From positions 12,324-76,323 of the forward strand of contig JAFDMF010000013.1 of the NCBI GenBank assembly GCA_019306065.1: DNA of 64,000 bases, in the 5' to 3' direction. This document shows, piece after piece, positions 2,105 to 63,510 of this stretch. Made by a program: the position numbers and the translations under genes. A model generated the notes under the pieces. The model made no database searches. It saw only the letters and a list, made by a program, of their open reading frames with translations, and had not been told where the DNA came from. This stretch comes from Deltaproteobacteria bacterium. GTDB taxonomy: Bacteria; Desulfobacterota; Desulfobacteria; Desulfobacterales; JAFDMD01. Positions within the stretch are counted from its first letter, which is position 1. Every line of letters starts with the position of its first letter.

Positions 2105-2166
2105 AGAATGATAAAATTTCGTTGGATAACAAACTACGAAGTTATCCAGCAAAATTTAAACAGAGG
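2105..2166 (+). repeat. family-2 element, minimal copy E (hairpin ggataac-N10-gttatcc plus conserved SD leader)
   Basis: aatgataaaatttcgttggataacaaactacgaagttatccagcaaaatttaaacagagg aligns with both ends of copy C. Confidence 0.65.
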
Positions 2167-2172
2167 GGAAAA

Positions 2173-3204: not shown

Positions 3205-3273
3205 AACTTAATAAAAAATTAATCTGCAATGAGAAATCTCATAAAACGCTATAGGAGTAAAACACAAAACATA

Positions 3274-4434
3274 ATGAAAAAAATCAATCTTGATCATATA
3301 TCTGTAAACCCAATGCCGCCCAAAGTTCAGGATGCGATGATAAAAGCAATAAAACAAAACTACGGAAACCCCTCCAGCTTAAACGCCGGCGGCGAACAAG
3401 CCGCGGAAGTTTTGGAAAACGCCCGCGGACAGGTCGCCAAACTTATAAACTGCAAAAACAATAAAGAGGTGATATTTACATCCGGCGGAACCGAATCGGC
3501 AAACCATGCAATAAAAGGAATAGCCTTTGCAAATGCAGAAAAAGGAAAACATATAGTAACTTCAAACATTGAACACAGCTCCGTAATCAGAAGTATAAAA
3601 CGCTTAACCCAGCTCGGATACAAAGCAACCTCCGTATCCGTAGATAAAAAAGGAAGAGTCAACCCTAAAGACATAAAAAAAGCGCTAACAGACGAAACAA
3701 TACTCGTATCCGTAATGCACGGAAACAATGAAATCGGAACAATACAGCCAATAGAAGAAATAGCCAGAATAACAAAAGAAAAAAAAATACCCTTCCATTC
3801 CGACGCAGCGAATACCGTAGGAGTAATACCGATTGACGTTCAAAAACTCGGAGCGGATATATTAAGTTTTGCTTCAAACCCGTATTACGGACCAACCGGC
3901 GTAGGCGGGCTATATATCCGAAGAGGCTTAAATATATGGCCAATGTTAGACGGAGGCATACAGGAAAAAAACAAACGCGCAGGAACCGAAAATTTAATCG
4001 GAATAATAGGTATGGGAGCCGCCGCAAAACTCGCAATGGAAAAAATGGATAAAAGAAGCGAACATCTTAAAAACCTTAAAAAACTTCTTATATCCGAACT
4101 GCCTTCATACATAGACGAATACATAATAAACGGAGACCCGGAAAACAGCCTTCAGAATCTAATATCTGTAAGCGTAAAATACATCGAAGGGGAAAGCATA
4201 CTATTAATGCTTGAAGATGCAGGCTATATCGTATCTACTCGTTCCGCATGCGCCACAGGTTCTTTGCGCGCATCCCATGTGCTTCTATCCATAGGATTAA
4301 AACATGAAGACGCTCAGGGAACAATCGTGATAACTCCGGGAATCGAAAATAAAAAAGAGGATATAATCGGCTTTCTTAAAGCTTTAAAAAAAATAGTAAC
4401 AACATTAAGGGAAATATCGCCACTTTATAAATAA
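3274..4434 (+). CDS. NifS/IscS-family cysteine desulfurase homologue lacking the PLP-binding lysine
   Basis: Has NNEIGTIQP, HSDAANTVG and the SACATGS active-site Cys loop. The SxSGHKxYGP motif reads SFASNPYYGP instead. The ATG at 3274 has SD taggag; the track start at 3229 is probably too early. Confidence 0.75.
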   Translation: MKKINLDHISVNPMPPKVQDAMIKAIKQNYGNPSSLNAGGEQAAEVLENARGQVAKLINCKNNKEVIFTSGGTESANHAIKGIAFANAEKGKHIVTSNIEHSSVIRSIKRLTQLGYKATSVSVDKKGRVNPKDIKKALTDETILVSVMHGNNEIGTIQPIEEIARITKEKKIPFHSDAANTVGVIPIDVQKLGADILSFASNPYYGPTGVGGLYIRRGLNIWPMLDGGIQEKNKRAGTENLIGIIGMGAAAKLAMEKMDKRSEHLKNLKKLLISELPSYIDEYIINGDPENSLQNLISVSVKYIEGESILLMLEDAGYIVSTRSACATGSLRASHVLLSIGLKHEDAQGTIVITPGIENKKEDIIGFLKALKKIVTTLREISPLYK

Positions 4435-4800: not shown

Positions 4801-4967
4801 TTTTTACGTAAAAAATTAAAAAGTAACGTTCCGATTTAAAAAAATAGCGTTATTTTTAAAAGTTAGCATATAGGCAGAATATTTATACGCAAATAAACTT
4901 TTTACATTTTATAAGCTAACATAAACAGATAAAACGCCCATTATTAAAGATATTTAATCACAAAAAA

Positions 4968-5065
4968 GAATGATTAATTTTGTTGGATAACAAAGAAATT
5001 TGTTCGTTTGCAAGGCAATGCAAAATTTTAGCGCAACGCCGAAAATGAGCAAAATAGAAAATTGC
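4968..5065 (+). repeat. family-2 element, partial copy D, upstream of gajA
   Basis: aatgattaattttgttggataacaaagaaatttgttcg...acgccgaaaatgagcaaa shares the left end and internal blocks with copies B and C. Confidence 0.5.
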
Positions 5066-5131
5066 GCAAAGGTCTTACATTTTTCTTTTAGACTATTTAT
5101 TCTGTTTTTCATTCATTTAAAAGGAAACATA

Positions 5132-7201
5132 ATGAAAATTACAAAAATTAAAGTTAAAAACTACAGGCTATTAAAAAATTTTTCTATTGATCTGGAAGAG
5201 GAGCTGTCTTTAATTGTCGGAAAAAATAATTGCGGAAAAACTTCCTTGTTATCAATAATGAATAAATCTATAAATTCGGATAAATTTTTATTCGATGATT
5301 TTAATTTAGATTTTAAAGCCGAATTAGAAAAACTAATTGAAAAACATATGTCAAAGGAAACAGAGAAAGAATATAAGCCGGTTGGCATAACTTTAAAATT
5401 ATTTATTGAGTATAATGAAAATGACAATCTTGCTAATATTAGCAAATTTATGATGGATTTAGACCCGGATAATAAAACCATAGTTCTTTTATTTGAATAT
5501 ATTTTGACGTTAGATAAGCTTAAACAGTTACGAGAGGATTTTAAGAAATTTAAAAATAGTAATCGCGATTTAGATTACTTTCTTCAAAAAAAACATTCAA
5601 ATTATTTTCGCGTATGTAAAAAAACAATCGAATTTAACATTCAAGATAAGAAAGAAAATGAGGACGTTTTTATTGACTTGAAAAAAGAAGAAAAAGCGCT
5701 CAAAGATGTAATTAATTATCAATGTATTAACGCCGATAGGGATGTTTCCAATAAAGAATCCGGCAAGCCTTTATCTCTGCTATCCTCAAAAATTTATAGA
5801 AAAATAGAAGCCGATGAAAGACAAAAAAAGGGAATTGAAGGTTTTAAAAACGCTTTGAGCAGCACGGATAAAGAATTAGGAAAAATTTATGAAAATATAT
5901 TTCAGGATGTAATAAAAAAAGTTAAAGACTTTGGAGGAATCAAGCCGGATGATACAAAAATTAAAATAACTTCAACATTACAGCATAAAGAACTGTTAGA
6001 GGGGAATACAACTGTTATGTATGAGCATGACGACAAGCATGATTTGCCGGAAAGTTATAATGGATTAGGCTATATGAACCTAATAAGTATGATTTTTGAG
6101 ATAGAAATATTATTGAATGAATTTAAAAAAAAGAAAGACGAAAAACCTGCGGATATTAATATACTTTTTATTGAAGAGCCGGAAGCTCATACGCACCCTC
6201 AAATGCAGTATATATTTATCAACAATATAAAAACGTTATTAAAAGACGGAATAAGTCGAGACGATGGAGAAAAAAGAGATTTGCAGTATATTATTAGCAC
6301 TCATTCTTCTCACATTGTAGCGGAAAGTGATTTTGATGACATCAAATACTTAAAAATAGAAAACAATGGCGTAATAGCTAACAATTTAAAAAATTTGAAA
6401 GAGGAATATAAAGACGAACAACAAAATTATAAATTTTTAAAACAATATCTAACTCTTCATAGGGCGGAATTGTTTTTTGCAGATAAAGCAATCTTTATCG
6501 AAGGAGATACCGAAAGAATTCTACTGCCGGCAATGATGAAAAAAATTGATCAGGATGATCCTAAAAACCCATTGCTTTCTCAAAATATATCAATCATAGA
6601 AGTTGGGAATTACTCTCAAATTTTTGAAAAATTCATTGATTTCATCGGGGTTAAATCTTTAATTATTACTGATATAGATTCAGTGACGGGCGATATAAAA
6701 AAATGTAGGGTGGCGGACAAGGACGCAACAATTACAACTAACGCTTCTTTAAAATTCTTTTACGGATCGAATAAACTTGAAGATTTTAAATGTGTTGCAT
6801 TGGAAAATATGGCGCTCAAAAAAAATTCCAAAAAAAAATGGGTTAAAAATAAAAACGGGCATTTGCTTTGCGTATATCAAACAGAAGAAGAGAATTCAAA
6901 AAAAGAAAAATATCATGCAAGAAGTTTTGAAGATTCTTTTTTTCATATAAATCGTCAATTTATTACTGATAATATTGATAATAAAAATAATTTCAAAAGT
7001 TTAAAAAATAAAAACTGCCTTAAAGACACAAGTAAAGACGCTTACGATCTATCAGAAGAATGTATAAATAAAAAACCGGCGTTTGCTATAGAGATTCTAT
7101 TAAATAGCGAAACTGACGATAAAGGAAAACAATTTACTAACTGGAAAATACCGGATTATATTAAAAAAGGATTATTATGGTTGAAGAAAGATCAAAATTA
7201 G
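5132..7201 (+). CDS. gajA: OLD-family ATP-dependent endonuclease (ABC-type ATPase + TOPRIM), Gabija GajA-like
   Basis: Starts MKITKIKVKNYRLLKNF. Walker A is GKNNCGKTS and Walker B is ILFIEEPEAHTHPQ. TOPRIM motifs are IFIEGDTERILLP and IITDIDS. The track start at 5000 falls in a repeat element; ATG 5132 follows SD aaaggaaa. Confidence 0.8.
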   Translation: MKITKIKVKNYRLLKNFSIDLEEELSLIVGKNNCGKTSLLSIMNKSINSDKFLFDDFNLDFKAELEKLIEKHMSKETEKEYKPVGITLKLFIEYNENDNLANISKFMMDLDPDNKTIVLLFEYILTLDKLKQLREDFKKFKNSNRDLDYFLQKKHSNYFRVCKKTIEFNIQDKKENEDVFIDLKKEEKALKDVINYQCINADRDVSNKESGKPLSLLSSKIYRKIEADERQKKGIEGFKNALSSTDKELGKIYENIFQDVIKKVKDFGGIKPDDTKIKITSTLQHKELLEGNTTVMYEHDDKHDLPESYNGLGYMNLISMIFEIEILLNEFKKKKDEKPADINILFIEEPEAHTHPQMQYIFINNIKTLLKDGISRDDGEKRDLQYIISTHSSHIVAESDFDDIKYLKIENNGVIANNLKNLKEEYKDEQQNYKFLKQYLTLHRAELFFADKAIFIEGDTERILLPAMMKKIDQDDPKNPLLSQNISIIEVGNYSQIFEKFIDFIGVKSLIITDIDSVTGDIKKCRVADKDATITTNASLKFFYGSNKLEDFKCVALENMALKKNSKKKWVKNKNGHLLCVYQTEEENSKKEKYHARSFEDSFFHINRQFITDNIDNKNNFKSLKNKNCLKDTSKDAYDLSEECINKKPAFAIEILLNSETDDKGKQFTNWKIPDYIKKGLLWLKKDQN

Positions 7202-9063
7202 AGCCTGAAGTTCAAAAAATATTTAAACATATAGATAATGGCGATAATTTTTTGCTGAGCGGCGGCGCAGGCAGCGGAAAGACCTATTCATTAGTGCAGG
7301 TTGTCAAACAGGTAATATCGAAAAATCCGACCGATAGAATTGCCTGTATGACCTATACAAATGCCGCTGTAAGAGAGATTGAAGAGAGAGTAACCTATAA
7401 AAACTTATTCGTATCTACCATTCACAATTTTTTGTGGGATAATATAAAACATTTTCAGAAAGTATTAAAAAATTCTTTGATTAATTTAATAAATGACGAG
7501 GAATCTAAAATCAAAAACCCGGAAGATGCGCCTGTGCTGGAATCTTATTTTGATCAATGTAAAGAAGGCATACAATACAAAGAATATTTAAAGTTAAAAG
7601 ATGGAATTATCTCTCATGATGAAATTTTGATATTGGCTAATTATGTCTTTAAAAACTATCCTAAACTTTGCGATATTCTAAAGGATAAATTTAAATTTAT
7701 CTTTATTGATGAATATCAAGATGCCGATAAAAATTTTATCCAAATCCTTCTTATTCATTTAAAACAAAGCAAGAAACAAAATATAATCGGTTTTTTTGGC
7801 GACGCTATGCAATCTATTTATGATAACGGCGTCGGCGATTTGGATCTTTATAAAGGCGAAGTAAAAGAAGTAAAAAAAAAGCAGAATAGGAGAAACCCGG
7901 AATTAATTATTGAGCTTGCTAATAAACTAAGAACCGATGGAATTAAACAAACCAAGTCAGAGGATACCAACGCTCCGAATATGATGAAAAATAGCAGGAT
8001 TAAAAAAGGTAATATTAAATTCTATTACTCTCAAAATAAAGATAAAGATAAAGATATAGAAAGAGTAAAGCAGAAGACAGGTTGGGACTTTGAAGATGCT
8101 AAACAGACAAAAATACTAAATTTAACTCATAATTTAATAGCTCCGAAAGCGGGATTTTCTAATCTCATGGAAATATATGATAAAGATAGAATCATAAAAT
8201 ATAAAAATAGAATAAAAAAATATATTAAAGATAAGGATATTAAAGATGATTTTTCCGAAAAAACTTTTGGAGAAGTAATTGAGATTTTATCAGACAAAGT
8301 TAAACCAACGAAGGCAATGAAAGATTTTATTAATTCTAATCAAGAATTATATAAATCTGCGAAAGGATATAAGTACCAATCTTTTGCTAAAATATATTTA
8401 GATAAAGAATCTTTAATTGACGACAAAAAGCAAGATAAAGACGAGGAGAATAAAAAAGGTTCTAAAAGGGACGATTTAATAAAGCATCTTTTTAAGATCC
8501 AAAATAATATCTCATTTTACAATGCAAAACAATTCAACGACTTTTTAAGAGCAACGGAATATAAAATAACTTCAATTCAAGATAAAAAAGAGTTAAAAGA
8601 CAACATTATTGAATTAACAGAAGTCGGAGATAAAACCATAGAAGAGATTATAAACAAAGCCGATGAATTTGGAATTTGTAAGAAAGACGATAAGCTTGCA
8701 AGATTTATATCCGAAAAAGAATATCTTTATAATCGCGTAAAAAAAATAAAATTTTTCGAGTTTCAAAAACTATACAATTATCTTGAAGGCTACACGCCGT
8801 TTTCTACGCAACATAAAGTTAAAGGGACAGAATTTGATAATGTTTTAGTAATTTTGGATAATGGCGGATGGAATCATTATAACTTTAAAGGATTATTTGA
8901 AAATAATGCTTCCAATAGCGTTAGAAAACGTACCGAAAAAATATTTTATGTTTGTTGCACTCGCGCAAAAAAAAATCTATCCGTATTTTTTAATAGCCCA
9001 TCAGAAGCAGTAATCACAAAAGCGAAAGATTGGTTTAGAGAAAAGAATGTCCGCGAAATATAA
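7177..9063 (+). CDS. gajB: UvrD/Rep-family SF1 helicase, Gabija GajB-like
   Basis: Walker A is SGGAGSGKTYS; motif II is FIFIDEYQDAD. Later helicase motifs are KVKGTEFDNVLVIL and YVCCTRAKKNL. Overlaps the upstream nuclease gene by 25 nt. Confidence 0.8.
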   Translation: MVEERSKLEPEVQKIFKHIDNGDNFLLSGGAGSGKTYSLVQVVKQVISKNPTDRIACMTYTNAAVREIEERVTYKNLFVSTIHNFLWDNIKHFQKVLKNSLINLINDEESKIKNPEDAPVLESYFDQCKEGIQYKEYLKLKDGIISHDEILILANYVFKNYPKLCDILKDKFKFIFIDEYQDADKNFIQILLIHLKQSKKQNIIGFFGDAMQSIYDNGVGDLDLYKGEVKEVKKKQNRRNPELIIELANKLRTDGIKQTKSEDTNAPNMMKNSRIKKGNIKFYYSQNKDKDKDIERVKQKTGWDFEDAKQTKILNLTHNLIAPKAGFSNLMEIYDKDRIIKYKNRIKKYIKDKDIKDDFSEKTFGEVIEILSDKVKPTKAMKDFINSNQELYKSAKGYKYQSFAKIYLDKESLIDDKKQDKDEENKKGSKRDDLIKHLFKIQNNISFYNAKQFNDFLRATEYKITSIQDKKELKDNIIELTEVGDKTIEEIINKADEFGICKKDDKLARFISEKEYLYNRVKKIKFFEFQKLYNYLEGYTPFSTQHKVKGTEFDNVLVILDNGGWNHYNFKGLFENNASNSVRKRTEKIFYVCCTRAKKNLSVFFNSPSEAVITKAKDWFREKNVREI

Positions 9064-9104
9064 TATTTTAAAAAAACAAACTATTTTGTTTTTTTAAAAA
9101 GCTT

Positions 9105-9133
9105 GCTCAAATTTTAATCGCAAAAATTTGAGC
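9105..9133 (+). terminator. stem-loop downstream of the helicase gene (10-bp stem gctcaaattt/aaatttgagc)
   Basis: Perfect inverted repeat read in the sequence. No clear T-tract follows. Confidence 0.35.
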
Positions 9134-9364
9134 ATAACGCCAAAAGTTCGCAGAATATCAATTTATACGAAAGTCTTTTCTATTATATTTTTAATTGCCC
9201 GCGCCTCCTAACTTTTTCTCATAATCTATAGTTATCGGTTTGTAATTTTTTTTATTTTGATTTATAAAAAAATCTTATAAAAAAATACAGGCTGCATAAA
9301 CTCAAACGCAAAAACCGAAATAAAAAATTTTATCCGAAAATATTTTAAAAAAAAGAGGTATATT

Positions 9365-9580: not shown

Positions 9581-11716
9581 ATGAGCGCCCTTTTATTTGA
9601 AATAGGAACCGAAGAGATTCCCGCCGGTTATATAAAACCTGCGCTTGAAACTATGGCGTCTGATCTTATAAAAAGTATGGACGACGTTAGAATCGAGCAT
9701 GGAGATTATAAAGTCTATGCTACTCCGCGAAGACTCGGAATAATAGTAGATAATGTTTCGGCAAAACAGAAACCGCTTGTAACCGAATTAATAGGTCCTC
9801 CGGCTTCCGTAGGATTTGACGAAAAAGGCAAGCCTACGATTGCGGCTGAAAAATTTGCGGAAAAAGCGGGCATAAAAACGGATAAGATCAAAACGGTTAA
9901 TACTGCCAAAGGAGCATATCTTGCGGCGAAAATAACCGAAAAAGGCGGTTTATCCGTCAATATTTTCAAAAAGATACTTCCCGATCTTATTTATAAAATA
10001 CCTTTTCCGAAATCTATGAGATGGTCAGATATGAATATAGAATTTGCAAGACCTATCCAGTCTTTAACCGCTATGTTAGGCGGTGAGAAGATTCCTTTTT
10101 CCATAGAAGGAAGAATAGATTCGGATAGATATATATACGGGCATTTTTTTATGAAGCCTCAAAAAATTAAACTTGCGGATGCAAAGGATTATCCGGACGC
10201 CTTAAAATCGGCTTATGTTATGGCGGATATGAACGATAGAAAAAAATTGGTTTTAAAATCAATTCAAAAAGAAGCTAAAAGCGTAGGCGGCAAAATTATA
10301 GAAGATGAAGAACTTTTAGATATAGTTACAAATTTGGTAGAGATGCCTTTTCCCGTAGTAGGAAGTTTCGATAAAAAGTTTTTAACACTTCCTGACGAAA
10401 TACTTATAACCTCTATGCGCGAACATCAGAAATATTTTGCCGTAGTTGACGAAAAAGGCAAACTTATGCCGCATTTTATAGCGGTTAATAATACCAAAGC
10501 AAAAAATATGAAGCTTGTTGCAAACGGACACGAAAGAGTTATACGGGCTCGTTTGGAAGATGCAATCTTTTTTTATAACGCGGATTTAAATATAAAGAAT
10601 GAGACTCGAATTCAAAAACTTAAAAAGGTTTTATTTCAGGCAAAACTCGGCAGCATGTATGAAAAAACCGAAAGGGTTAAGCAGATCGCCGAATTTCTAT
10701 CCGATACTTTAAAAATTAATTCGGATTCAAAAAAATCTTTATTAAAAGCCGCGCAGTTATGTAAATCTGATTTGGTAAGTAATGTTGTGGGAGAATTTCC
10801 GAAACTTCAAGGAATTATGGGAAGGGTCTATGCAAAAGTTTCAAAAGAAAAGGCGCTTGCGGCAAATGCCATAGAGGAGCATTATATGCCGATATATTCG
10901 GGAGGAAAGCTTCCCAAATCAAAAGTCGGAGCTATCCTTGCAATAGCCGATAAAATCGATTCCATATCCGGAGTATTCGCAGCAGGACTTATACCTACAG
11001 GCGCATCCGATCCGTATTCTTTAAGAAGACAGGGAATTGGAATATTACAGATTATATTAGATAAAAAATTCTCATTTTCGTTGAAAAAACTGATAGCCGA
11101 AAGTTTAAGCAAATATAAAGGCGGACCGGAACTTGATACGAAAGAGCAAACTTTAGAAAAGATATATGCTTTTTTAATCGTTAGAATGGAAAATATTCTG
11201 ATTGAAAAAGGTTTATCCAAAGATGTTGTTTATGCGGTTACCTCCGCTGCAAGCGACGATATACTTGCAGTTTTTAATAGAACAAAAGCATTGGAAGATT
11301 TTAAATTAAAACCGGATTTTTCATCATTTGTGGAAACCTTCAAACGCGTGGCAAACATCATAAAAAAGGCGAATTCGGATAAAATACCGTCCGAAGTTGA
11401 CAAATCCTTATTTGAAAAAAAAGCGGAAGCGGATCTTTTTGACGCCTATAATAAAACCTTTGCAAAAACCGACAAAAATTTTAAAGCTGGAAATTATTCA
11501 AAAGGGCTTGCCGAAATATCCTTATTAAAGCCGAATATCGATTTTTTATTTGACAAAGTAATGGTGATGACTGATAAAAAAGGGTTGAAATTAAACAGAC
11601 TCGCTCTTTTAAAATCAATAGCCGTTCTATTTGAACGGGTAGGAGATTTCTCAAAACTAGAAAAATTTCATAATCAAAATATAAACAGAGGAAACGTCCA
11701 TTATCACAAAAAATAA
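9581..11716 (+). CDS. glyS: glycine--tRNA ligase beta subunit
   Basis: N-terminus LLFEIGTEEIPAGY and overall length are typical of GlyS. No glyQ lies upstream in this window. Confidence 0.9.
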   Translation: MSALLFEIGTEEIPAGYIKPALETMASDLIKSMDDVRIEHGDYKVYATPRRLGIIVDNVSAKQKPLVTELIGPPASVGFDEKGKPTIAAEKFAEKAGIKTDKIKTVNTAKGAYLAAKITEKGGLSVNIFKKILPDLIYKIPFPKSMRWSDMNIEFARPIQSLTAMLGGEKIPFSIEGRIDSDRYIYGHFFMKPQKIKLADAKDYPDALKSAYVMADMNDRKKLVLKSIQKEAKSVGGKIIEDEELLDIVTNLVEMPFPVVGSFDKKFLTLPDEILITSMREHQKYFAVVDEKGKLMPHFIAVNNTKAKNMKLVANGHERVIRARLEDAIFFYNADLNIKNETRIQKLKKVLFQAKLGSMYEKTERVKQIAEFLSDTLKINSDSKKSLLKAAQLCKSDLVSNVVGEFPKLQGIMGRVYAKVSKEKALAANAIEEHYMPIYSGGKLPKSKVGAILAIADKIDSISGVFAAGLIPTGASDPYSLRRQGIGILQIILDKKFSFSLKKLIAESLSKYKGGPELDTKEQTLEKIYAFLIVRMENILIEKGLSKDVVYAVTSAASDDILAVFNRTKALEDFKLKPDFSSFVETFKRVANIIKKANSDKIPSEVDKSLFEKKAEADLFDAYNKTFAKTDKNFKAGNYSKGLAEISLLKPNIDFLFDKVMVMTDKKGLKLNRLALLKSIAVLFERVGDFSKLEKFHNQNINRGNVHYHKK

Positions 11717-11868
11717 TAATGAAATTTTAGCGGATAATAAAATAACTTGTTCAAGGCGAATCAAAATTTTAACCGCGAGACTACTCATATATTTAGAGGA
11801 TTAAAATTTTGATCCAATGCAGAAATCGGGCAAATTGTAAAGTTATCTAACGAAATTTAAATAGAGGA
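11717..11868 (+). repeat. family-2 element, copy A, forming the hdrA 5' leader
   Basis: aatgaaattttagcggataa...atcaaaattttaacc...ggattaaaattttgat...gttatctaacgaaatttaaatagagg ends 12 nt before ATG 11881. Confidence 0.65.
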
Positions 11869-11880
11869 AATTAATTAATT

Positions 11881-14800
11881 ATGTCTAAAGATATAATAGG
11901 CTCCGTAGTAGTTGTAGGAGGCGGAATAGCCGGCATGCGTTCCGCTTTGGATTTGGCAAATTCCGGATATTATGTTTATCTTGTAGAAAAGTCTTCGTCA
12001 ATCGGCGGAGTAATGTCTCAACTTGACAAAACTTTTCCTACTAACGACTGCGCTATGTGAATTATCTCGCCTGTACTGGTCGAGGTCGGCCGGCATTTAA
12101 ACATAGAGTTATTAACTTTAAGCAAGATAAAAAACATAAAAGGAGAAGCGGGGAATTTTGACGTAGAAGTTATAAAAAAACCTAGATATGTAGATGAATC
12201 AAAATGCGTAGGCTGCGGATTATGCGCTGAAAAATGCCCAAAAAAAGTAACAGATACATACAACATGGGGCTTCAAAAAAGAAAAGCCATATATGTTGAG
12301 TATGCTCAGGCAGTCCCTTTAAAATATGCAATAGATGCAGATAATTGTATATATTTTCAAAAAGGGAAATGCGGAGCATGTAAAAAATTATGTCCTGCCG
12401 AAGCTATTGATTTCGAGCAAAAAGAAGAAACGATTACCATCAACGCAGGAGCGATTATATTTTCAAGCGGCTTTAATCCTTTGAATCCTGCCGATCTGGA
12501 TTTATATCAATATAATGACCGTCCCAATGTTATTACTTCTATGGAAATGGAAAGAATATTATCTGCATCTGGCCCTACAGGCGGGCATCTTGTAAGACTT
12601 TCGGACAAAAAAGAGCCTAAAAAAATAGCGTGGCTACAATGCGTAGGCTCAAGAGACATGAATAGATGCGGCAACCTTTATTGTTCCTCCGTATGTTGCA
12701 TGTATGCCATTAAAGAAGCGGTAATAGCAAAAGAGCACTCAGAAGAAGGGTTAGACTGCGCTATATTCTATATGGACATCAGAACCCCTGGCAAAGAATT
12801 TGAAAAATTCTATAATAATGCAAAGGAAAAAGAGGGCGTCCGCTTTATAAAAAGTAGAATCCATTCTATAGAACATGTGGTAAATACGGATGATCTTAAA
12901 GTTCGTTATTTGGATGAAGATAATAATCTGCAAGGCGAAATTTTTGATATGATCGTTTTGTCCGTAGGTATGGAGACGCCTAAAGATATTGTAAAACTTT
13001 CTCAAAAGCTTGGAATCGAACTTTCCAAAGGAAACTTTTGCAAAACTTCTACATTCAATCCTTTGGAAACATCTATTGAAGGCATATTGGTAAGCGGCGC
13101 GTTCGGCGGCCCAAAAGATATACCTCAATCGGTAGTATATGCTTCAGGAGCGGCTTGCGCTGCAGGCGAAATTTTAAATTCCGCGCGAAATACTCTTACC
13201 AAAACAGTCGAACCTGTTCCGGAAACAAATGTAATAGGCGAAAGACCCAGCATAGGGGTTTTTGTTTGCAAATGCGGCAGCAATATAGCCGGCGTAGTTG
13301 ATGTTAGCAAAGTTGTGGAATATGCGGCAAAACTTCCTTTTGTAGATTATGCGGCGGAAAATATCTATTCCTGCTCTCAGGATAATCAGGATGGTATGGC
13401 GCAGCTTATAAAGGAGAAAGGATTAAACAGAGTTGTAGTCGCAGCCTGCACCCCAAAAACTCATGAGCCTCTATTTCAGGAAACCCTTATATCCGCAGGT
13501 TTAAATAAATACCTATTTGAAATGGCAAATATAAGAAATCATAATTCTTGGGTTCATAAAGACAGTCCCGAACTTGCCACCCTAAAAGCTATGGACCTTG
13601 TTCGTATGGCGGTTGAAAAAATTTCTATTGCAAAACCGTTGTCCGAAGCGGAGCTTGAAGTAAATCAGAACGCAATGATTATAGGCGGCGGCGTAGCCGG
13701 AATAAGCGCGGCTTTAGGGCTTGCCAATCAGGGCTACGATACATATCTGATAGAGAAAAGCGGCGAGTTGGGCGGAGAAGCAAAAAAAATATTTAAAAGC
13801 GCAAATAACGAAAACATTCAAAAAGAGCTTTTATCTCTTATTGAGGCGGCTCAAAACAATAATAAGCTTCATATCAGGCTTAACAGCAGTATCGTAAATG
13901 TGGAGGGCTTTGTAGGAAACTTTAAAACCGTAATAGCTTCCGATAATAAAGAGGAAAGCATAGAACACGGCGTATCTGTAATAGCTACAGGCGGAACCGC
14001 TTTAAAGCCTACCGAATATCTATACGGAGAGGATAAAAGAATAATAACAAGCTTAGATCTTGATAAAAAATTTATTAATAACGATAACTCTTTAAAAGGT
14101 CTGAAATCTGCGGTTTTTATTCAATGCGTAGGATCAAGAGAGCCGAATCGCCCTTACTGTTCCGGAGTATGCTGCACGCATTCTATAACTAACGCATTAG
14201 AGCTTAAAAAAATAAACCCTGATATGAATATATTTATCCTATACAGAGATATAAGAACTTACGGAGAAAAAGAATATTTATATCATCAGGCAAGAGAAGC
14301 CGGAATTATCTTTATAAGATACCTTGCAAGCGACAAGCCGAATATTAAAATCGAAAACGGAAAAATTTCGGTGACCGTCCAGGACACCTCTTTAAATCAA
14401 TATCTTGAAATGGAAGCCGATCTTGTAACTCTTGCTTCCGCCATAGTTGCAAATAAAGATCAGAAGCTTGCGAAATTCTTTAAAATCCAGGTTAATGAAG
14501 ACGGATTTTATATAGAAAAACATGCAAAGTTAGGTCCCTGCGAGTTTGCTACGGACGGGGTATTTTTATGCGGTTTGGCTCATTATCCGAAACCCATAGA
14601 CGAATCTATAGCTCATGGCAAGGGAGCCGCCGCAAAAGCTTTAACCCTTCTTGCTAAAAAGAAAATACGCACGTCAGGAACAATAGCGGATGTCGAGCCT
14701 CTTAAATGCAGTTCTTGCGGAGTATGCGTTTCTATATGTCCTTATTCAGCGCCCTCTTTTATACCGGACGACGCAAGATTCTTTGCCGGAAAGGCTCAGA

Positions 14801-14931
14801 TTAACCCCGTATTATGCAAAGGATGCGGATTATGCGTGGCATCTTGCAGATCCGGCGCATTACGATTAAAAGGATTTGATAATGATCAGATATTTGCCCA
14901 AATAAACGCCGCATTTGAAGAGGCGGCATAA
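11881..14931 (+). CDS. hdrA: large tandem HdrA-like flavoprotein, selenocysteine-containing (UGA at 12058-12060)
   Basis: ATG 11881 gives [19 protein letters not shown]...[19 protein letters not shown], in frame with track ORF 12265..14931. A second GxGxxG ([15 protein letters not shown]) lies mid-protein. There are multiple Cys clusters and a C-terminal 2x[4Fe-4S] motif. Confidence 0.85.
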
Positions 14932-22308: not shown

Positions 22309-22390
22309 ATTTGTTAGAAGATTTTCCAAATTGTTTGCTCCGCTTCTTGCTTATTCGCTTCGGAACGCAGAAAATAGGCAAAATACTTTG

Positions 22391-24985
22391 TTATACGGGG
22401 CGTATCTTACAATATACTTCATTATAATCTTTTATTTGCTCCGATACTTTCAGCAGATCATTTCTTACGGAAATGCCAAATAGTTTTTCATTTTCTTTAA
22501 GATATGGCAATATTAAATTCCAGTCCGCATCGGTTAATTGAGCTATTTCTCCTCTGTTTAACTGCTCTTTTTGAATTGTTTTGTAAAAATCTCTTATATA
22601 AACTGCGCCTCCTGATGCCAGAGAAAAAAGATTCGACCCTGAATAAGGGTTTTTTAAAGAGACAACTTTTCCTTCTTCGTTGAATTCAACTCCGTTTAAT
22701 ATAACAAAACCTCCGCCGTTTAAAGGATCTCCAGCCATAAAAGATTCCGCAAGATAATCAAGACATGTTCCGTTAATAACAACTTTAGGGCTGCCTGTGG
22801 CATTGATAAGGGGGCGTCCGGCAAGATTTCCCATTACAAAAACATCTCCGCCTTTTGCGCCATACATAAAAGTCTGCCCAGCGTCTCCGTATATTACAAG
22901 TTTGCCGCTTTTCATAATTTGCCCTAGCTGATCCTGAGCGTTATTATGAACATAAATTTCAAGCCCGTCTATTCCGGAAGCAAGATAATCTCCCGAGCTT
23001 CCGTAAACATCTATTCTTACTCCGTTTGAGTTTTTTAAAAAACCGCATCCGCAAAATCTTTGCCCTTTATATCCGTAACATATAAAACGTTTCCAGCCTA
23101 ATCTATAAGCTCTGCAAATAAAGGTAGCGTCGCAATCGTCTCCCTCTGGCGGAAAATCTACAGCGCTTATTACCAAAAGCCTCTCTTTTTCTTTCGGCGC
23201 TCTTATATCGGCAGCGTTTTTTTTATCTATATAAGCGTAGATAGATTCTCCATTGTTAATTTTTAAAAGCGCGGTTGAGGCAAAAATCTTATCAAGCCTT
23301 TTTCTTACTGCCGCAAGAATCAAACTTCTTTTTTTATCTCCGATATAATAGTGCATATCATTAAGGTAAGTTAAAATCTCTATTGCTTTTTCTTTAGGTT
23401 CATCTCCTTTTTTTGCATAAGATAGAAGCTTGTCTAATAAAGAGTCTGTTTCTTTATAATCGGAAACCTCCATATAAGCTTTGCATAAGTCTTTTAAAAT
23501 TTTTAAAGGTTCGGTTTCTATCTTTTTATCAATTATATTAAAAAGGTTATCCGCATCTTTATTTTTTGCGTTTTTTGTCTCTTTTTCAAAATTTTTTTGT
23601 TTATAAGGAGCGGTTATTATATCTCCGAATTTATTTGAGCATACAAGAGTCTTCTTGCCTTTATTCTCTTTGTCATCTTTTACCGTAAAGATAAAGGCGC
23701 CGCCGTCTGTAGCGCTTCCGCCTCTTGCGTTCCAGTAAATATCGGCTACAGGGCAAAATCTGTTATCTTCTTCGGCAAGGCTTTCTAATGTTGCGTCAAT
23801 CGCCTGCTTTTCAGAACAGATTAAACCGATTTTAACCTCTGAATCCTGCAAAGCAAAAACCTGCGGTCTTAACATAGAAGTATCTGTAATTCCTATAAGC
23901 TTAAAAGTTTTTTCGGACGGATTGTTTTCTGCTATTATAAAAAACCAAGGACCATCTGGCGAAGAGTTTATATGAGACGATTGAATATATCTGTATATCT
24001 CCTTTTTTTTGGCGGGCAAAAGATCAAAATCGTATTCCGTAGTGGGCGCGATAGCTTCTATTACATATTCGGTAGGATATTGGTAAGTTCTTTTAAGAAG
24101 ATCTATCATCAAAACCGCCACTTCAGTATCTGTTAAAAACTGAGGAAAAATATTATGCTGTTTAAGATATTCGCTTACTGCATGATAATTTGCAAAATCG
24201 CCGTTATGAACCAAAGCTTCATGCATCCCTATAAAAGGGTGAGCGCCTCCTGGATGCCACACTTTTCCTTTGGTAGGGTATCTTTGATGAGCAATCCAGC
24301 CATGAGCTTTAAAATCTTCTAACTTATAATATAAAACCGCGTTTTCGGCGTATCCGACAATCTTTAAGATCATCATATTTTTTCCATGAGACAAAACAAA
24401 TGCTTTTTGCTCGCCAAGAGAAGAATAGAAATTTTTATTTAAGCGGATCGAATTTTGATAAACAAATTCATCTTCCGCTTTTTCACGTTCAAGTTTCTGA
24501 AGCCTGTTTTGCCTGATAAATTGTTCCAAAACTTCTTCTTTTACCCTTACAAAATAGCGCAGCGCATCAGGAGGTTGAACTTCAAGCCCGTCAATTTTTC
24601 TATAATCTTTTACCGAAGGAATAATTCCGCCGTCATAAATATCAAAAAAAGGGTCTATATTTGCGGCTTCCACATCCTTTCGGAATTTTTTATCAAGAAG
24701 CGCTACGTTAAGCAGATAATGAGAATCAAGAATTTTTTGAGGAACTCCCAAATCTTCGGCGCAAAGCCCTACCGCGGCTATTCCGCCGCCTTTGCCGTTG
24801 CCTCTGTTGTGCATCTGAACCGAAGGTTTATAAATATGTTTTCCTTTTACCGGAATCGAGCAGATAAAGCCGGTTACTCCGCAGCCGCCTTCATCCGCGT
24901 TTTTTGAAATTATTTTTTGATCTTTATCAAACAGTTTAGCTCTTGAATCTGTTAAAGTTTTTGCAATGGTATTTTGGGAAGTCAT
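22391..24985 (-). CDS. glutamate-synthase-related fusion protein (class-II glutamine amidotransferase domain + GXGXG domain)
   Basis: N-terminal GCGVTGF Ntn-type motif. C-terminal YGSSGDYLASG...YGDAGQTFMYGAKGG repeats are typical of the GltB C-terminal domain. Confidence 0.7.
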   Translation of the reverse strand: MTSQNTIAKTLTDSRAKLFDKDQKIISKNADEGGCGVTGFICSIPVKGKHIYKPSVQMHNRGNGKGGGIAAVGLCAEDLGVPQKILDSHYLLNVALLDKKFRKDVEAANIDPFFDIYDGGIIPSVKDYRKIDGLEVQPPDALRYFVRVKEEVLEQFIRQNRLQKLEREKAEDEFVYQNSIRLNKNFYSSLGEQKAFVLSHGKNMMILKIVGYAENAVLYYKLEDFKAHGWIAHQRYPTKGKVWHPGGAHPFIGMHEALVHNGDFANYHAVSEYLKQHNIFPQFLTDTEVAVLMIDLLKRTYQYPTEYVIEAIAPTTEYDFDLLPAKKKEIYRYIQSSHINSSPDGPWFFIIAENNPSEKTFKLIGITDTSMLRPQVFALQDSEVKIGLICSEKQAIDATLESLAEEDNRFCPVADIYWNARGGSATDGGAFIFTVKDDKENKGKKTLVCSNKFGDIITAPYKQKNFEKETKNAKNKDADNLFNIIDKKIETEPLKILKDLCKAYMEVSDYKETDSLLDKLLSYAKKGDEPKEKAIEILTYLNDMHYYIGDKKRSLILAAVRKRLDKIFASTALLKINNGESIYAYIDKKNAADIRAPKEKERLLVISAVDFPPEGDDCDATFICRAYRLGWKRFICYGYKGQRFCGCGFLKNSNGVRIDVYGSSGDYLASGIDGLEIYVHNNAQDQLGQIMKSGKLVIYGDAGQTFMYGAKGGDVFVMGNLAGRPLINATGSPKVVINGTCLDYLAESFMAGDPLNGGGFVILNGVEFNEEGKVVSLKNPYSGSNLFSLASGGAVYIRDFYKTIQKEQLNRGEIAQLTDADWNLILPYLKENEKLFGISVRNDLLKVSEQIKDYNEVYCKIRPV

Positions 24986-25021
24986 TTTTTTCCTCTGTTT
25001 ATATTTTAATTAAGGGATTTC

Positions 25022-25116
25022 TTCTCGCTGCGCTCGTCGAAATGACAGGCAAAAATAACAGACGGGCATTACAGGGCAAAAAAAAATCCTTCCCGTCTTG
25101 TCGAGCGAAGCGAGAA
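25022..25116. repeat. imperfect long inverted repeat (family 3: TTCTCGCT[G/T]CGCTCG... arms)
   Basis: The left arm ttctcgctgcgctcgtcgaaatgacagg is imperfectly complementary to the right arm cccgtcttgtcgagcgaagcgagaa. Related copies lie at 873-941 and 1-40. Confidence 0.6.
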
Positions 25117-29668: not shown

Positions 29669-29910
29669 TTTTATCCTTTCTTCCGGTTGATATTCAGATT
29701 TTAATATTTTGTCTCTACAGGACTTTTAAATTAGCCTAATATTCCAAATTCTGTCAGGGACTAAATATTTATAGAAAAAATTCTTCATTCCGTTAAATAC
29801 GAAATATCGTAATAATCATTCTTTTTTGTGTCTATAATATAATCATGAACGTTTCCTCTGTTTATATTCAGATTAGATAGCAAATTTGTTGGTTTTTACA
29901 GCTTACAAAA

Positions 29911-29953
29911 ATTTCAATCCTCGGCTTATTAAAAATAAGCCGAGGATTGAAAT
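29911..29953 (-). terminator. Rho-independent terminator after secF
   Basis: 19-bp stem tttcaatcctcggcttatt/aataagccgaggattgaaa, followed by TTTTT on the minus strand. Confidence 0.65.
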
Positions 29954-29988
29954 TAAAATATGATGCCGAAAATAGACAAAGGACGAAG

Positions 29989-31023
29989 TTATGCAACACT
30001 CTTTTTGCCATACATAATTAGTATGGGACTCGCCACAAATATTGAAGAATATGTTCCTACTAACACTCCGATAATCATAGCAAAAGCAAAATCGTGAATA
30101 ATTCCTCCGCCAAATATAAACAAGGAGGTTAAAACAAGCAGGGTCGTAAAAGATGTAAGAATCGTTCTGCTTAATGTTTCGTTAACGCTTTTGTTAATTA
30201 TATTTTCAAAGCTTTCTTTATGATTTTTTTTTAAATTTTCTCTTATTCGGTCAAATACTATTATGGTATCGTTAAGAGAATATCCTATTATTGTAAGAAG
30301 CGCGGCAATAATAGGAAGGGTAAAATCTTTATCTAATATCGAAAATATGCCTACGGTTATAATAACATCGTGTATTAACGCGGCTACAGCTCCCATCGCA
30401 TATTTTAAGCGCAGCAGCCAAAATAGCGTTAAGCTAATGATAAATGCGGCAAGTATAAGAATCGGTATGCCTGTTTTAAAAAGGGATAATCCGTAAACCG
30501 CCCCCATCAAAGCGCCGGCTACAACTCCGCTTAATATCCATTTCAATTCAAATCTACCGGAAATATATACTGTAATAAACAAAATCACAAAAAATATCGC
30601 AAAAAGCGCTTTTTCTCTTAATTCTTTTCCTATCTGAGGACCTACCGCCTCTACCCGCCTTATTTCGGCTTTATTATCGGAAAAGGTTTTTAAAGCATTC
30701 TGAAAATTTGTTCCGAATTCTTCATCTGTTATTTCAGTATTTGCTCTTATTAAAAATTCTTTATCTTTTTTATCTCCGAATTCCTGCACAGAAGATTTAT
30801 CAAAATTTATAGCCTCAAAGACATCATTTATCTCTTGTAGGGTTATGCTTTTTTCAAACTTTATTTGTATGACTGTTCCGCCCGCAAAATCGATTCCCAG
30901 TCTAGGTCCTCCCTTGATAATTAAAGAGGCTATGCCTAATAGTATCATTATACAAGAAACCGCAAAGCCTATTTTTCTTTTTGCTATAAATCCAATATTT
31001 ATATCAGGCTTTATAAACCGCAT
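29989..31023 (-). CDS. secF: protein translocase subunit SecF
   Basis: Multi-pass membrane protein with GIDFAGGT and the conserved SecF C-terminal half. Confidence 0.9.
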   Translation of the reverse strand: MRFIKPDINIGFIAKRKIGFAVSCIMILLGIASLIIKGGPRLGIDFAGGTVIQIKFEKSITLQEINDVFEAINFDKSSVQEFGDKKDKEFLIRANTEITDEEFGTNFQNALKTFSDNKAEIRRVEAVGPQIGKELREKALFAIFFVILFITVYISGRFELKWILSGVVAGALMGAVYGLSLFKTGIPILILAAFIISLTLFWLLRLKYAMGAVAALIHDVIITVGIFSILDKDFTLPIIAALLTIIGYSLNDTIIVFDRIRENLKKNHKESFENIINKSVNETLSRTILTSFTTLLVLTSLFIFGGGIIHDFAFAMIIGVLVGTYSSIFVASPILIMYGKKSVA

Positions 31024-50862: not shown

Positions 50863-50876
50863 TTTGTATCTGTATA

Positions 50877-52322: not shown

Positions 52323-52348
52323 TGATTTTTCCTATATTTATATTTTAA

Positions 52349-52624
52349 TTATGAATCTTTGCCAGCTTTTACATAAGCAAGCCTTAAATCATGCAAGAGG
52401 TTTATTAAAAGGTTGTTTTCATCATCGGTAAGATTATTTTTTGTTTTCTCTTCTATAATACCGAGTATATCAATTGTCTGTTTTGCCAAAGACAGATTTT
52501 TTCCGCTTTCTCCCGCAGTATCCTGCATTATTCCCAAATTAACCAAAGCCGAAGCTACAAGAGAATTTATAAAGGTGGAAAAATCAATCTTAGGCAAAGC
52601 CTCTTTTTTATTATTATCAGACAT
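52349..52624 (-). CDS. DUF1844 domain protein
   Basis: FSTFINSLVASALVNLG motif, typical of DUF1844 as I recall it. Confidence 0.6.
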   Translation of the reverse strand: MSDNNKKEALPKIDFSTFINSLVASALVNLGIMQDTAGESGKNLSLAKQTIDILGIIEEKTKNNLTDDENNLLINLLHDLRLAYVKAGKDS

Positions 52625-59078: not shown

Positions 59079-59097
59079 AATGAATTTTAAAACCGTT

Positions 59098-59221
59098 GCA
59101 TAACAAAGTGGTTTGTTCAAGTTCAAAGCGGATAAAGATTTTAACCGCAGGAATACTTATAGTATTTCGAGGATTAAAATTTTTATCCAACGCCGAAATT
59201 GGGCAAACTACTTTGTTATGC
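59098..59221 (+). repeat. family-2 long hairpin element, copy B (12-bp perfect termini gcataacaaagt/actttgttatgc)
   Basis: Read in the sequence. Related to copies at 2105, 4968, 11717 and 63341. Confidence 0.7.
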
Positions 59222-59235
59222 AGAAGTCTTAAAAT

Positions 59236-60048
59236 TTATTCGCCCGCATAAACTTTTGTAGCTTTATTCGTGGAGGCTTCGACTTTTTTTAATATTTTGT
59301 CTGTTTTCTCCAAAGGAAGCCACTTAACTTTGCCTGTTCCCACGTCATATATTGCGCCGATAACTTTTGCTTTTCCATCTTTTACAATGTTTCTGACTGC
59401 GGGGCTTTTCATAAAAAGGTCTTCTATGCTTGTCCATACGTTTTCTTCGATAGCGTAAGGTATTATGGCGTCTCCTTTTATATCTTTATGCTGTTCCATC
59501 GCTTTTTTAACCGCCGGCACTATGTTATCCACAAGCGGCGGGATGTTGGCTTCCAATTTACTCCCTTTGCCGGTAAGGGAATGGGTTACCGCTGTAACGG
59601 CTCCGCATTGGGTATGCCCTAATACTACTAAAAGCGGAGTATTAACATGAGCTAATCCGTATTCTATGGAGCCTACTTCGTCTGTGTCGCATACGTTGCC
59701 AGCAACTCTTATTACAAATATGTCCATTATTCCGGCGTCAAAGATTAATTCTACAGGAACGCGAGAATCGGAGCATGTAATAACCGTAGCGTAAGCGTAA
59801 TCTCCCTGATTTGCTTTGCCCGCAAGAGCTATGCGCTCGGCATCTTTATGGGGGTCAGAGGATTTGCCTGTATAAAAGCGTTTATTGCCATCTGTCATCA
59901 TTTTTATAACTTCGTCGGGGCTCGGCTTTTTTACAGCGCCTTCGCCTGCGTTTGCAATAACGGGAAACCAGATTAACATCGCTGAAAAGATTAGGATGAA
60001 AAAAATGTTTTTGATTTTTTTAAATTTCATTATGCAATTTCCTTTCAT
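59236..60048 (-). CDS. beta-class carbonic anhydrase with signal peptide
   Basis: Has CSDSRVP and GHTQCGAV zinc-ligand motifs. The start may be the second ATG (60030), which follows aaaggaaa. Confidence 0.85.
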   Translation of the reverse strand: MKGNCIMKFKKIKNIFFILIFSAMLIWFPVIANAGEGAVKKPSPDEVIKMMTDGNKRFYTGKSSDPHKDAERIALAGKANQGDYAYATVITCSDSRVPVELIFDAGIMDIFVIRVAGNVCDTDEVGSIEYGLAHVNTPLLVVLGHTQCGAVTAVTHSLTGKGSKLEANIPPLVDNIVPAVKKAMEQHKDIKGDAIIPYAIEENVWTSIEDLFMKSPAVRNIVKDGKAKVIGAIYDVGTGKVKWLPLEKTDKILKKVEASTNKATKVYAGE

Positions 60049-63337: not shown

Positions 63338-63340
63338 TTT

Positions 63341-63458
63341 TTGTCCTCTGTTTAAATTTTACCGGATAACTTTGTAGTTTGTCCGATTTCGGCGTCGGAT
63401 AAAAATTTTTATCCGCATTGAACTTGAATAAACTTCTTTGTTATCCGACGAAATTTCA
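63341..63458 (-). repeat. family-2 element, copy C, forming the 5' leader of gene 63128..63337
   Basis: The reverse complement reads gatgaaatttcgtcggataacaaagaag...ctacaaagttatccggtaaaatttaaacagaggacaaaaaATG. Confidence 0.7.
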
Positions 63459-63510
63459 TCATCATTTTTTGTGATTAAATATTTTTCATAATGGATATTT
63501 CAAAAGAGTT

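Follow-up and report, generated by a model that had tools for sequence, protein, structure and literature searches.

The 64,000-nucleotide stretch of deltaproteobacterial DNA considered here (contig JAFDMF010000013.1, positions 12,324 to 76,323; hereafter the window) carries a family of structured repeats, one of them lying between glyS and hdrA. The repeats are probably decaying copies of a palindromic miniature inverted-repeat transposable element (MITE) of some 142-150 bp that spread through a clade of uncultured Desulfobacterota-like bacteria, certain copies having become fused to a Shine-Dalgarno (SD) box and serving as gene leaders. An initial annotation of the window had proposed either a MITE-like element, co-opted as the leader of several genes, or a dedicated cis-regulatory RNA. 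The MITE-like character is borne out by a sister subfamily in related metagenome-assembled genomes (MAGs) that has sharp ends, 12-bp terminal inverted repeats and 5-bp target-site duplications, and co-option by the way in which the hairpin runs into AAATTTAAAYAGAGG and a start codon at three copies in the window (A, C and E) and in relatives. A previously undescribed and abundant MITE family in uncultured sulfate-reducer-like MAGs would account for the near-identical leaders in this genome. Less usual for a MITE are structure-preserving covariation with strand asymmetry and the donation of a ribosome-binding site to at least one gene.

Subfamilies, insertion sites and copies in the window

Scanning genome contigs for the core pattern of the element gave at least 105 loci (these and further loci are designated here L with a number) in about 20 MAGs labelled Syntrophaceae, Desulfobacterales, Desulfobacteraceae or Deltaproteobacteria. 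With copy B, the most intact copy of the window, nhmmer found at least 107 non-overlapping matches in 638 kb of such loci. Copies in these relatives are intergenic. Sixty-six full-length copies yield the consensus GAGACCTTTGCAGAATGTTCAATTTTGTTCAAGTTCAAGGAAGGCGAAAATTTTAACCACAGGAATATATTGGATATTTCGAGGATTAAAATTTGAGCCTGACGCAGAAATTGGGCAAAAGGGGACGTTATGCAAAGGTCTC with sharp ends GAGACCTTTGCA…TGCAAAGGTCTC, just outside which conservation is at background. Two subfamilies can be told apart. The 142-bp subfamily, with 12-bp terminal inverted repeats (GAGACCTTTGCA) and near-identical copies, is hosted by MAGs of 43-47% GC. The window subfamily is shared by the window, GMC8_bin_28 (JAOZTP01; syntenic stretches 85-96% identical to the window at the nucleotide level) and WB1_Bin_16 (JAFDMD01), the last two being the closest relatives of the window; all three are of about 36% GC. 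The core of this subfamily is as in the 142-bp form and its outer arms are different (…NNNN-ATAACAAAG…GAAGTTAT-NNNN…). The right termini of B (GCAGAAGTCTT), D (GCAAAGGTCTT) and F (ACGAAAGTCTT) are like those of the 142-bp form, the termini of B being intermediate between the two. The 142-bp subfamily is young, and the window subfamily is older with diverged outer arms. Plasmid and phage collections gave no similarity to the element.

The signature of transposition is clearest in the 142-bp subfamily. Of 111 strand-hits, 60 are flanked by identical 5-mers and 83 by 5-mers with no more than one difference, while random pairs are identical in 1.3%, comparisons shifted by 1-3 bases give at most 2 of 111, and other lengths are without signal. 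Together with the perfect 12-bp terminal inverted repeats these target-site duplications make the 142-bp family a MITE. Mobility of the window subfamily has to be deduced from this sister subfamily, from tandem duplications and from filled and empty sites, because its own duplications are not recognised. At the site orthologous to that of B, for example, GMC8_bin_28 has two tandem copies and an extra terminator-like hairpin, and its glyS-hdrA spacer (L135) holds two tandem units versus one in the window. The position of E is occupied in WB1_Bin_16 (L076) by a full-length copy, which is followed by a different gene. The site of C is empty in L106 and L107, and C and its orthologue have lost different central parts, their identity being some 60-65% (an estimate by eye) versus about 90% for the flanking genes. 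For A and L135, a duplicated AGAGG (5 bp) or some longer direct repeat is a suggestive mark of how the long form inserted, but it does not hold generally.

Within the window, a covariance model derived from 28 members of the family, run with filters off, reveals seven copies and one fragment (Table 1). The five copies recognised initially (A to E) all exist at about the positions given then; F, H and the right-arm fragment G had been missed. The core motif AACGCCGAAAWTGGGCAAA, with up to three mismatches, occurs five times where 0.07 occurrences are expected. All stages of decay are represented, from intact (B, H) through eroded (A), centre-deleted (C, D, F) and arms only (E) to a fragment (G). 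Copy B is a near-perfect 162-nt hairpin, paired along its whole length (minimum free energy -71.4 kcal/mol, z -12), within which the perfect 12-bp termini of the initial annotation stand at 59098-59109 and 59210-59221, the hairpin itself being longer. Copy E, minimal and consisting of outer arms only (ggataac-N10-gttatcc), does equal C without its inner hairpin, with 88-89% identity to the two ends of C.

The surroundings of the copies are varied, and the genes first assigned to them hold. Copy E precedes a rubrerythrin-like gene starting at 2173, and D lies 49 nt upstream of gajA (from 5132, followed by gajB), which keeps its own SD. Copy F, whose inner hairpin is a different sequence that is still paired, is directly downstream of gajB. 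Copy A, full length but eroded, lies between the glyS stop (GlyS ending at 11716) and hdrA, which starts at 11881. Copy H, full length and with a perfect GC-rich apical hairpin, is antisense to both its neighbours, and its right end overlaps the secF stop codon (29989). Copy B is flanked by two convergent genes, for a DUF3795 protein and a beta-carbonic anhydrase, its right terminus overlapping the stop codon of the latter. Copy C is inside an operon, where a carboxyltransferase gene precedes it and the small carboxylase gene (69 aa, at 63337) follows; next comes the gene for an OadA-like biotin carboxylase subunit.

The Gabija pair (gajA 5132-7201, gajB 7177-9063), located between nifS (3229-4434) and glyS, is bracketed by D upstream and F downstream in the same orientation, and recombination at the repeats may have brought in the island or framed it. 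In the relatives many core matches are at contig ends and many contigs break inside the element, so the family systematically breaks the assemblies of these MAGs. Two contigs of GMC8_bin_28 end or begin inside tandem copies (L057 2400-2753 and L048 1-140), and many contigs of the AUK013 (JAGGSD01) and SRP178699 MAGs have a terminus some 55 nt inside a copy.

Hairpin structure, strand and orientation

Structural alignment of 28 sequences (16 from the window subfamily and 12 varied 142-bp copies) gives, with RNAalifold, one long hairpin of 47 pairs. The initial annotation had named compensatory changes in the arms as one means of judging its hairpin, and changes on both sides are present in 29 of the 47. 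Paired cells amount to 93.7%, versus 81.4% in column shuffles and 29-51% with partners displaced by 1-3 columns; for covariation the score is 0.401 versus 0.185, and none of 500 shuffles reaches any of five measures. The outermost helix is a particularly direct illustration, with sequences that differ and complementarity that is kept: AAAACGGGGCGC-ATAAC…GTTAT-GCGCCCCGTTTTT in one case, AAATTTCGGGGGC-TAAC…GTTAT-CCCCCGAATTT in a second and AGTCTGTTGC-ATAAC…GTTAT-GTAACAGACT in a third. Internal-loop sequences UUCAAGG and AACGCMGAAA are conserved across both subfamilies. A kink-turn in the apical internal loop (CC-GCA-GG / GA-GG) was considered and rejected, the required A being G in 25 of the 28 sequences. 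That the arms form a long hairpin, as first described, is true of B but not of A and D, which fold no better than shuffled sequence (z values in Table 1).

One strand is strongly favoured. The mean minimum free energy of the RNA from the 142-bp copies is -58.1 forward versus -35.4 reverse, with the forward strand more stable in 57 of 57; for the window subfamily the means are -49.5 and -42.6, and forward is the more stable in 16 of 18. Cells with G·U are far commoner than cells with A·C (51 to 9 and 61 to 28), although the counts of cells and copies are not independent because the 142-bp copies are nearly identical. Some wobble pairs are conserved, such as G·U at columns 65:82, present in 25 of 28 sequences, and the covariance model scores every window copy far higher forward than in reverse. 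A fold that is kept by compensatory changes and is so strand-specific points to selection on the transcript. An intermediate of strand-specific single-stranded DNA would leave a signature identical to asymmetry at the RNA level.

Orientation relative to genes is also biased. Neighbours of the 142-bp subfamily are sense in 71 cases and antisense in 36, and in tandem gene contexts 18 are sense versus 5 antisense. Start codons facing the right end are at a median distance of 74 nt (19 of 37 within 75 nt), and those facing the left end at 207 nt (1 of 17 within 75 nt). In the window only H is antisense to the adjacent gene, the other six copies being sense. The right end of the window subfamily is tight on a gene boundary, which is either a sense start codon or an overlapping stop codon of the opposite strand (B, H, L010, L014, L025).

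The ribosome-binding box and the leaders

The AAACAGAGG-type box serves 5 of the 52 window genes, the remainder having mostly ordinary purine-rich (AGGAG-like) sites. Where it is joined to the repeat, the layout is …GTTATCC-N5-AAATTT running directly into AAACAGAGG and then an A-rich spacer. In every one of the ten leaders that were folded the SD is unpaired and lies 3-6 nt past the helix base; they are those of A, C and E, their orthologues, aspS-, mtnA-like and ychF-like leaders in relatives (these genes being assigned from N-terminal sequence only) and two metagenome contigs. The start codon had been placed 6-12 nt after AGAGG in all three window leaders; this is so for C (7 nt) and E (6 nt), and for A the distance is 13 nt.

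Comparison with outgroups indicates what the leaders replaced. Between the carboxyltransferase gene and the small carboxylase gene the spacer is 173 nt in the window, 39 nt (with AAGGGAG) in L106 and 12 nt (with AGGAG) in L107, the outgroups being without the repeat. Such short spacers with an ordinary SD show that the repeat block inserted upstream of the small gene and replaced the native SD; the composite block is an insertion, and one that now carries the SD of that gene. For hdrA, outgroups L136 and L137 have an SD of CAGGAGAA type (AGGAG), no repeat and different upstream genes, and the block likely supplies the hdrA SD in place of a native one. The inserted block very probably carries the SD of the other leader genes likewise.

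The box is nevertheless not an integral part of the element, as the initial annotation had supposed in describing a repeat that carries its SD. The SD box, AAATTTAAACAGAGG, is missing from all 142-bp copies and, in the window subfamily, from many copies that include B, F and H; elsewhere it stands without a hairpin. Nor is AAACAGAGG exclusive to the repeat: it occurs 11 times in the window versus 0.5 expected, some occurrences being without a hairpin. Absence from many copies, combined with occurrence on its own, marks the box as a separate repeated module that has been fused to some copies. Among the 105 relatives' loci listed, the exact pattern of the SD tail has no match and TAAACAGAGG is in only 3 loci, which confines the tail to a single clade and a single subfamily. 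A metagenome scan for a hairpin end plus SD box gave 26 loci, of which 24 are chance matches in AT-rich DNA and two, L112 and L113, are genuine.

The box also begins a separate upstream repeat, at 11683, 25192, 29855 and 56230. This upstream module, ATAAACAGAGGAAAC-G-YCCATTAT…TTAATCACAAAAAAGAATGAT, is found 60-220 nt upstream of seven unrelated window genes and is always sense (Table 1); the genes include gajA, hdrA and those for a GXGXG-domain protein, a flavodiiron protein, a 3-hydroxyacyl-CoA dehydrogenase and the small carboxylase protein. L010 has two such modules in tandem. From its sequence the module looks like an SD with a pseudo-start, and candidate roles are promoter, remnant gene start or recombination core. 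The outward promoter of the initial annotation finds no evidence in sigma-70 consensus scans around A, C and D, where sites are no commoner than in shuffled sequence and have no consistent position, other promoter types not being covered. A conserved leader peptide in the module was rejected, its mini-ORFs (open reading frames) being mostly ATT-started and varying in length and frame. The stop codon with which glyS ends in GMC8_bin_28 (CATAATTAA) has been lost in the window (CATAATCAA, 11672-11716), and because of this loss of the stop seen in L135 the glyS frame runs through the upstream module of A, with 14 extra codons through the AAACAGAGG module; probably for this reason the exact GlyS protein has no database entry. 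Gene callers should expect such leaders and a glyS read-through extension, and the covariance model can be used to mask or annotate the family.

Direct repeats of the box occur on both sides of inserted material at A, in L135 and at 25200/24992, and L070 and L112 have tandem arrays in the order hairpin-repeat-hairpin-repeat-ATG. The sequence immediately left of the hairpin (…CAAAAAAGAATGATT) resembles a degenerate copy of the right-hand SD-to-ATG region, and ACAAAAAATGAT is on both sides of copy C. The box repeats may have originated as long insertion duplications, by slippage to give a tandem duplication, by recombination between shared leaders or by site-specific integration at the box. A bolder version of events, rather unlikely on balance, is that hairpin and AAACAGAGG box form a portable translation-initiation cassette that moves whole, perhaps via the duplicated 14-16-nt box T(A/T)TAAACAGAGGAAA. 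In housekeeping genes, namely hdrA, aspS, the ychF-like and mtnA-like genes and that of a carboxylase subunit, it would have overwritten the native ribosome-binding site clade-wide, the RNA hairpin being under purifying selection as a 5' or intercistronic stabiliser or processing signal and the whole being a domesticated MITE that standardises leaders.

Table 1. Repeat copies, SD boxes and upstream modules in the window
Feature	Position	Strand	Description
Copy B	hairpin 59079..59240 (model match 59088-59234)	+	147.8 bits, E 1e-30; 70 bits reverse
Copy A	11722..11861	+	93 bits forward, 16.6 reverse; z -0.6
Copy C	63351..63456	-	80 bits; z -3.9; centre deleted
Copy H	29868..30007	+	71 bits; z -6.4
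Copy D	4975..5083 (model match 4975-5080)	+	49.6 bits; z -1.2; centre deleted, eroded
Copy F	9061..9181	+	31.2 bits, E 2e-4; degenerate
Copy E	2114..2160	+	23.2 bits, E 0.015; z -4.4
Fragment G	22364..22409	+	right arm only (AACGCAGAAAATAGGCAAAATACTTTGTTATAC); 16.9 bits
SD box of hdrA	11862..11880	+	tail of GAAATTTAAATAGAGG (overlaps right end of A) and 13-nt spacer, to ATG 11881
SD box of 69-aa gene	63338..63350	-	tail of AAAATTTAAACAGAGG (overlaps right end of C) and ACAAAAA, to ATG 63337
SD box of rubrerythrin-like gene	2158..2172	+	AAACAGAGGGGAAAA, to ATG 2173
SD box without hairpin	24986..25012	-	TTAATTAAAATATAAACAGAGGAAAAAA and ATG; upstream of 864-aa GXGXG-domain gene
Variant SD box without hairpin	52323..52350	-	ATAATTAAAATATAAATATAGGAAAAATCA and ATG; upstream of DegP-like protease gene
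Upstream module of A	11676..11721	+	ATATAAACAGAGGAAACGTCCATTATCACAAAAAATAATAATG; starts with direct repeat of SD box
Upstream module of C	63457..63510	-	CCATTATGAAAAATATTTAATCACAAAAAATGATGATG; degenerate, fills remainder of 173-nt spacer
Upstream module of D	4916..4974	+	CATAAACAGATAAAACGCCCATTATTAAAGATATTTAATCACAAAAAAGAATGATT
Upstream module	25135-25207	-	
Upstream module	29812-29870	-	
Upstream module	56185-56245	-	
Upstream module	60860-60905	-	

Known systems, alternative readings and neighbouring features

In behaviour the element is like the palindromic MITEs of Correia, ERIC or RUP type, to which it is unrelated in sequence. Correia elements (CREE/NEMIS) of Neisseria are co-transcribed with adjacent genes, whose expression they alter, and as RNA hairpins are substrates for RNase III (PMC2649163; PMC10969869). 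The likeness extends to the palindromic build, at a size of about 100-155 bp, to the terminal inverted repeats and conserved core, and to the many intergenic copies that are often immediately upstream of genes. There is no sequence similarity, however, and what Correia elements donate is promoters and a site for integration host factor (IHF), not an SD; they duplicate TA, whereas the 5-bp duplications of the present element vary in sequence. Further differences are the strong strand asymmetry with compensatory substitutions and the host, an uncultured Desulfobacterota-like clade. ERIC (or IRU) sequences of enterobacteria and Yersinia, imperfect palindromes of about 127 bp, are transcribed with their neighbours and have an orientation-dependent effect on mRNA through RNase E (PMC10969869). 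They too are palindromic and often very close to gene ends; sequence and host are unrelated, and they are not reported to supply a ribosome-binding site. The length of the duplication also differs, that of ERIC being TA.

The small pneumococcal families BOX, RUP and SPRITE occupy common intergenic regions with insertions of one family into another, and one family resembles a terminator (PMC10969869; PMC3049150). Similarly, the window nests the hairpin family, a terminator hairpin, an element beginning TTAAGGGATTTCTC… and the AAACAGAGG module; the sequences are unrelated, and here one module is a translation-initiation box used by real genes. A 2024 review of what prokaryotic MITEs do names promoters, IHF sites, RNase processing, gene inactivation, small RNAs and terminators, ribosome-binding-site donation not being among them (PMC10969869). 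REP/BIME sequences (a palindrome of 20-40 nt, 5' GTAG, with tnpA-REP) are a poor comparison for an element of about 145 nt with other termini, and there is no Y1 transposase among the window genes scanned.

On these analogies a coherent, if conditional, picture of the element in the transcript can be drawn. A transcript in the forward orientation would fold into one long hairpin, kept by compensatory substitutions and G·U pairs, that would act most likely as a 5' or intercistronic stabiliser or as a site processed by RNase III or RNase E, as with Correia and ERIC. In a subset of copies the right end is fused to the separately repeated AAACAGAGG box which, remaining single-stranded, serves as the SD site of the gene. 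Copies next to start codons probably persist since the attached box, A-rich and unstructured, keeps the downstream gene translated. Between convergent genes, or with a GC-rich outer stem and T run, a terminator-like role is likely. If the hairpin is functional, the element would exemplify, in nature, a 5' leader that is modular and can be transplanted.

Several observations sit uneasily with a decaying MITE partly turned to use as leaders. In the window subfamily no target-site duplications are recognised, and an autonomous insertion sequence with the same termini was not found, no terminus pair being 0.2-4 kb apart in the 638 kb of loci (MAG fragments). The left flank of the hairpin (…CACAAAAAAGAATGATT) is conserved, like a degenerate direct repeat of the SD-to-ATG region, which simple transposition with 5-bp duplications does not predict. 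The SD box is outside the inverted-repeat boundaries of the element and is also hairpin-independent (24992, 52340), so that the linkage of hairpin and box upstream of many genes is unaccounted for. For hdrA, the outgroups do not have glyS as upstream neighbour, and it is the type of SD that is comparable there, not an empty site. Were the arms only terminal inverted repeats for transposase binding, the compensatory variation in the outer arms would be unexpected, and the lack of independence among the counts of cells and copies is also pertinent. Finally, the leader copies A, D and L025 (the ychF copy) have lost most of their pairing; such erosion, together with C orthologues that have different deletions and diverge faster than their flanks, argues against strong selection on the hairpin in leaders.

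A dedicated and vertically inherited cis-regulatory RNA leader, not mobile, in which the hairpin binds a protein or ligand and controls downstream translation, is improbable. The strong covariation with internal loops conserved across both subfamilies, the G·U-biased asymmetry, the sense-orientation bias and the consistent position of the SD just 3' of the helix are what such a leader would show, and to this extent the second suggestion of the initial annotation was well founded. The 5-bp target-site duplications and near-identical dispersed copies of the sister subfamily speak against it, however, as do the downstream genes, which are unrelated to one another (hdrA, rubrerythrin-like, small carboxylase subunit, aspS, ychF-like, mtnA-like, gajA), the 3', convergent or antisense contexts of B, F and H, the eroded state of leader copies A and D, and the different internal deletions of C and its orthologue. 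No known RNA family had been assigned to the repeat, and Rfam is in agreement: Rfam 15 at gathering thresholds finds only two tRNAs in the whole window, and at permissive E-values only plant miRNA-precursor hairpin models appear, with 25-30 bits versus thresholds of 90-117.

Highly improbable is the view that these are primarily repeated intrinsic terminators or hairpins of mRNA 3' ends, similar to pneumococcal SPRITE, and leaders by accident. A GC-rich outer stem is followed by a T run in L071 (GCGCCCCGTTTTTTT), L070 (GCAAAGTTTTTTTT) and L050 (CCCCCGAATTTTT), B is between convergent genes, many right ends overlap a stop codon of the opposite strand, and a second, unrelated repeated terminator hairpin is present in the window. 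Yet there is no T run in the 142-bp copies or in A, C, D and E; among genes downstream in sense, about half have their start at most 75 nt from the element, where termination would silence the operon, and C is inside a conserved carboxylase operon.

Least probable of all is a site-specific recombination or cassette system, with the hairpin as an attC-like site (ATAAC…GTTAT cores) or the box T(A/T)TAAACAGAGGAAA as the att core of a circular module-plus-hairpin unit, the box being duplicated at both sides. Integron attC sites are imperfect palindromes of 57-141 nt, with short …AAC / GTT… cores around variable but complementary sequence, one functional folded strand and often a start codon close by; their R'' and R' sites are RYYYAAC and GTTRRRY. 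GCATAAC/GTTATGC and GGATAAC/GTTATCC fit these cores except at one position per side, variable but complementary sequence is present outside them, and one strand folds much better. The AAACAGAGG direct repeats flanking module and hairpin, the tandem units in L135, L070, L112 and L057 and the bracketing of Gabija by D and F in the same orientation favour it as well. Against all this, no integrase or recombinase gene is near any window copy among the genes scanned, the copies do not form a one-directional cassette array but stand in both orientations, 2-30 kb apart, among housekeeping genes (glyS, hdrA, secF, carboxylase), the cores depart from the attC consensus, the upstream box has no downstream partner at 29855 and 56230, and the sister subfamily has classical terminal inverted repeats with 5-bp target-site duplications.

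The intergenic regions around the MITE copies hold further repeats. A second family, consisting of a perfect 14-16-bp hairpin, GTAGAGACGTTGCA(T)TGCAACGTCTCTAC, is at 50827-50877, 53472-53522, 56248-56298 and 60911-60963, on the minus strand and directly after stop codons, with a T run at two sites and followed by TTAATTATAAACAGAGGAA at 56248 and 60911. The T runs and the position after stops give it the look of a repeated intrinsic terminator. A third family of about 95 nt, with ends TTAAGGGATTTCTC…GAGAAGAAATCCCTTAA and internal CGCTCG(T/A)CGAAATGACAGG, has mutually inverted copies at 815-909 and 25078-25172 and is also in L071 and L014. The copy at 25078-25172 has a AAACAGAGG module on one side and, on the other, the AAACAGAGG SD box belonging to the 864-aa gene; this is the place that the hairpin has upstream of hdrA. 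Upstream of E a non-coding stretch of about 200 nt (1887-2090) is 87% identical to one in WB1_Bin_16 (L076 1524-1730), the downstream genes being different; the covariance model of the element gives it only 16 bits, and a 30-nt piece, ATAAGCAAAAAACGGAGCAAACAACTTGGA, recurs inverted beside fragment G (22325-22354). This stretch may be another repeat or an RNA gene.

Two observations concern neighbouring genes. An in-frame TGA (12058-12060, codon 60, motif TNDCAM*IISP) splits the ORF of hdrA (11881-14931), and L135-L137 have a 59-aa N-terminal hdrA fragment with the same end point; because the fragments end at the same place the TGA is very probably a selenocysteine codon. FlpD/MvhD genes downstream of hdrA are also split in L136 and L137. 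Lastly, an ATPase gene of AAA_21/AAA_15 type (AbiEii/OLD-like; 25500-26609), which adjoins the repeat-rich 24985-25260, may be another defence gene next to these repeats.

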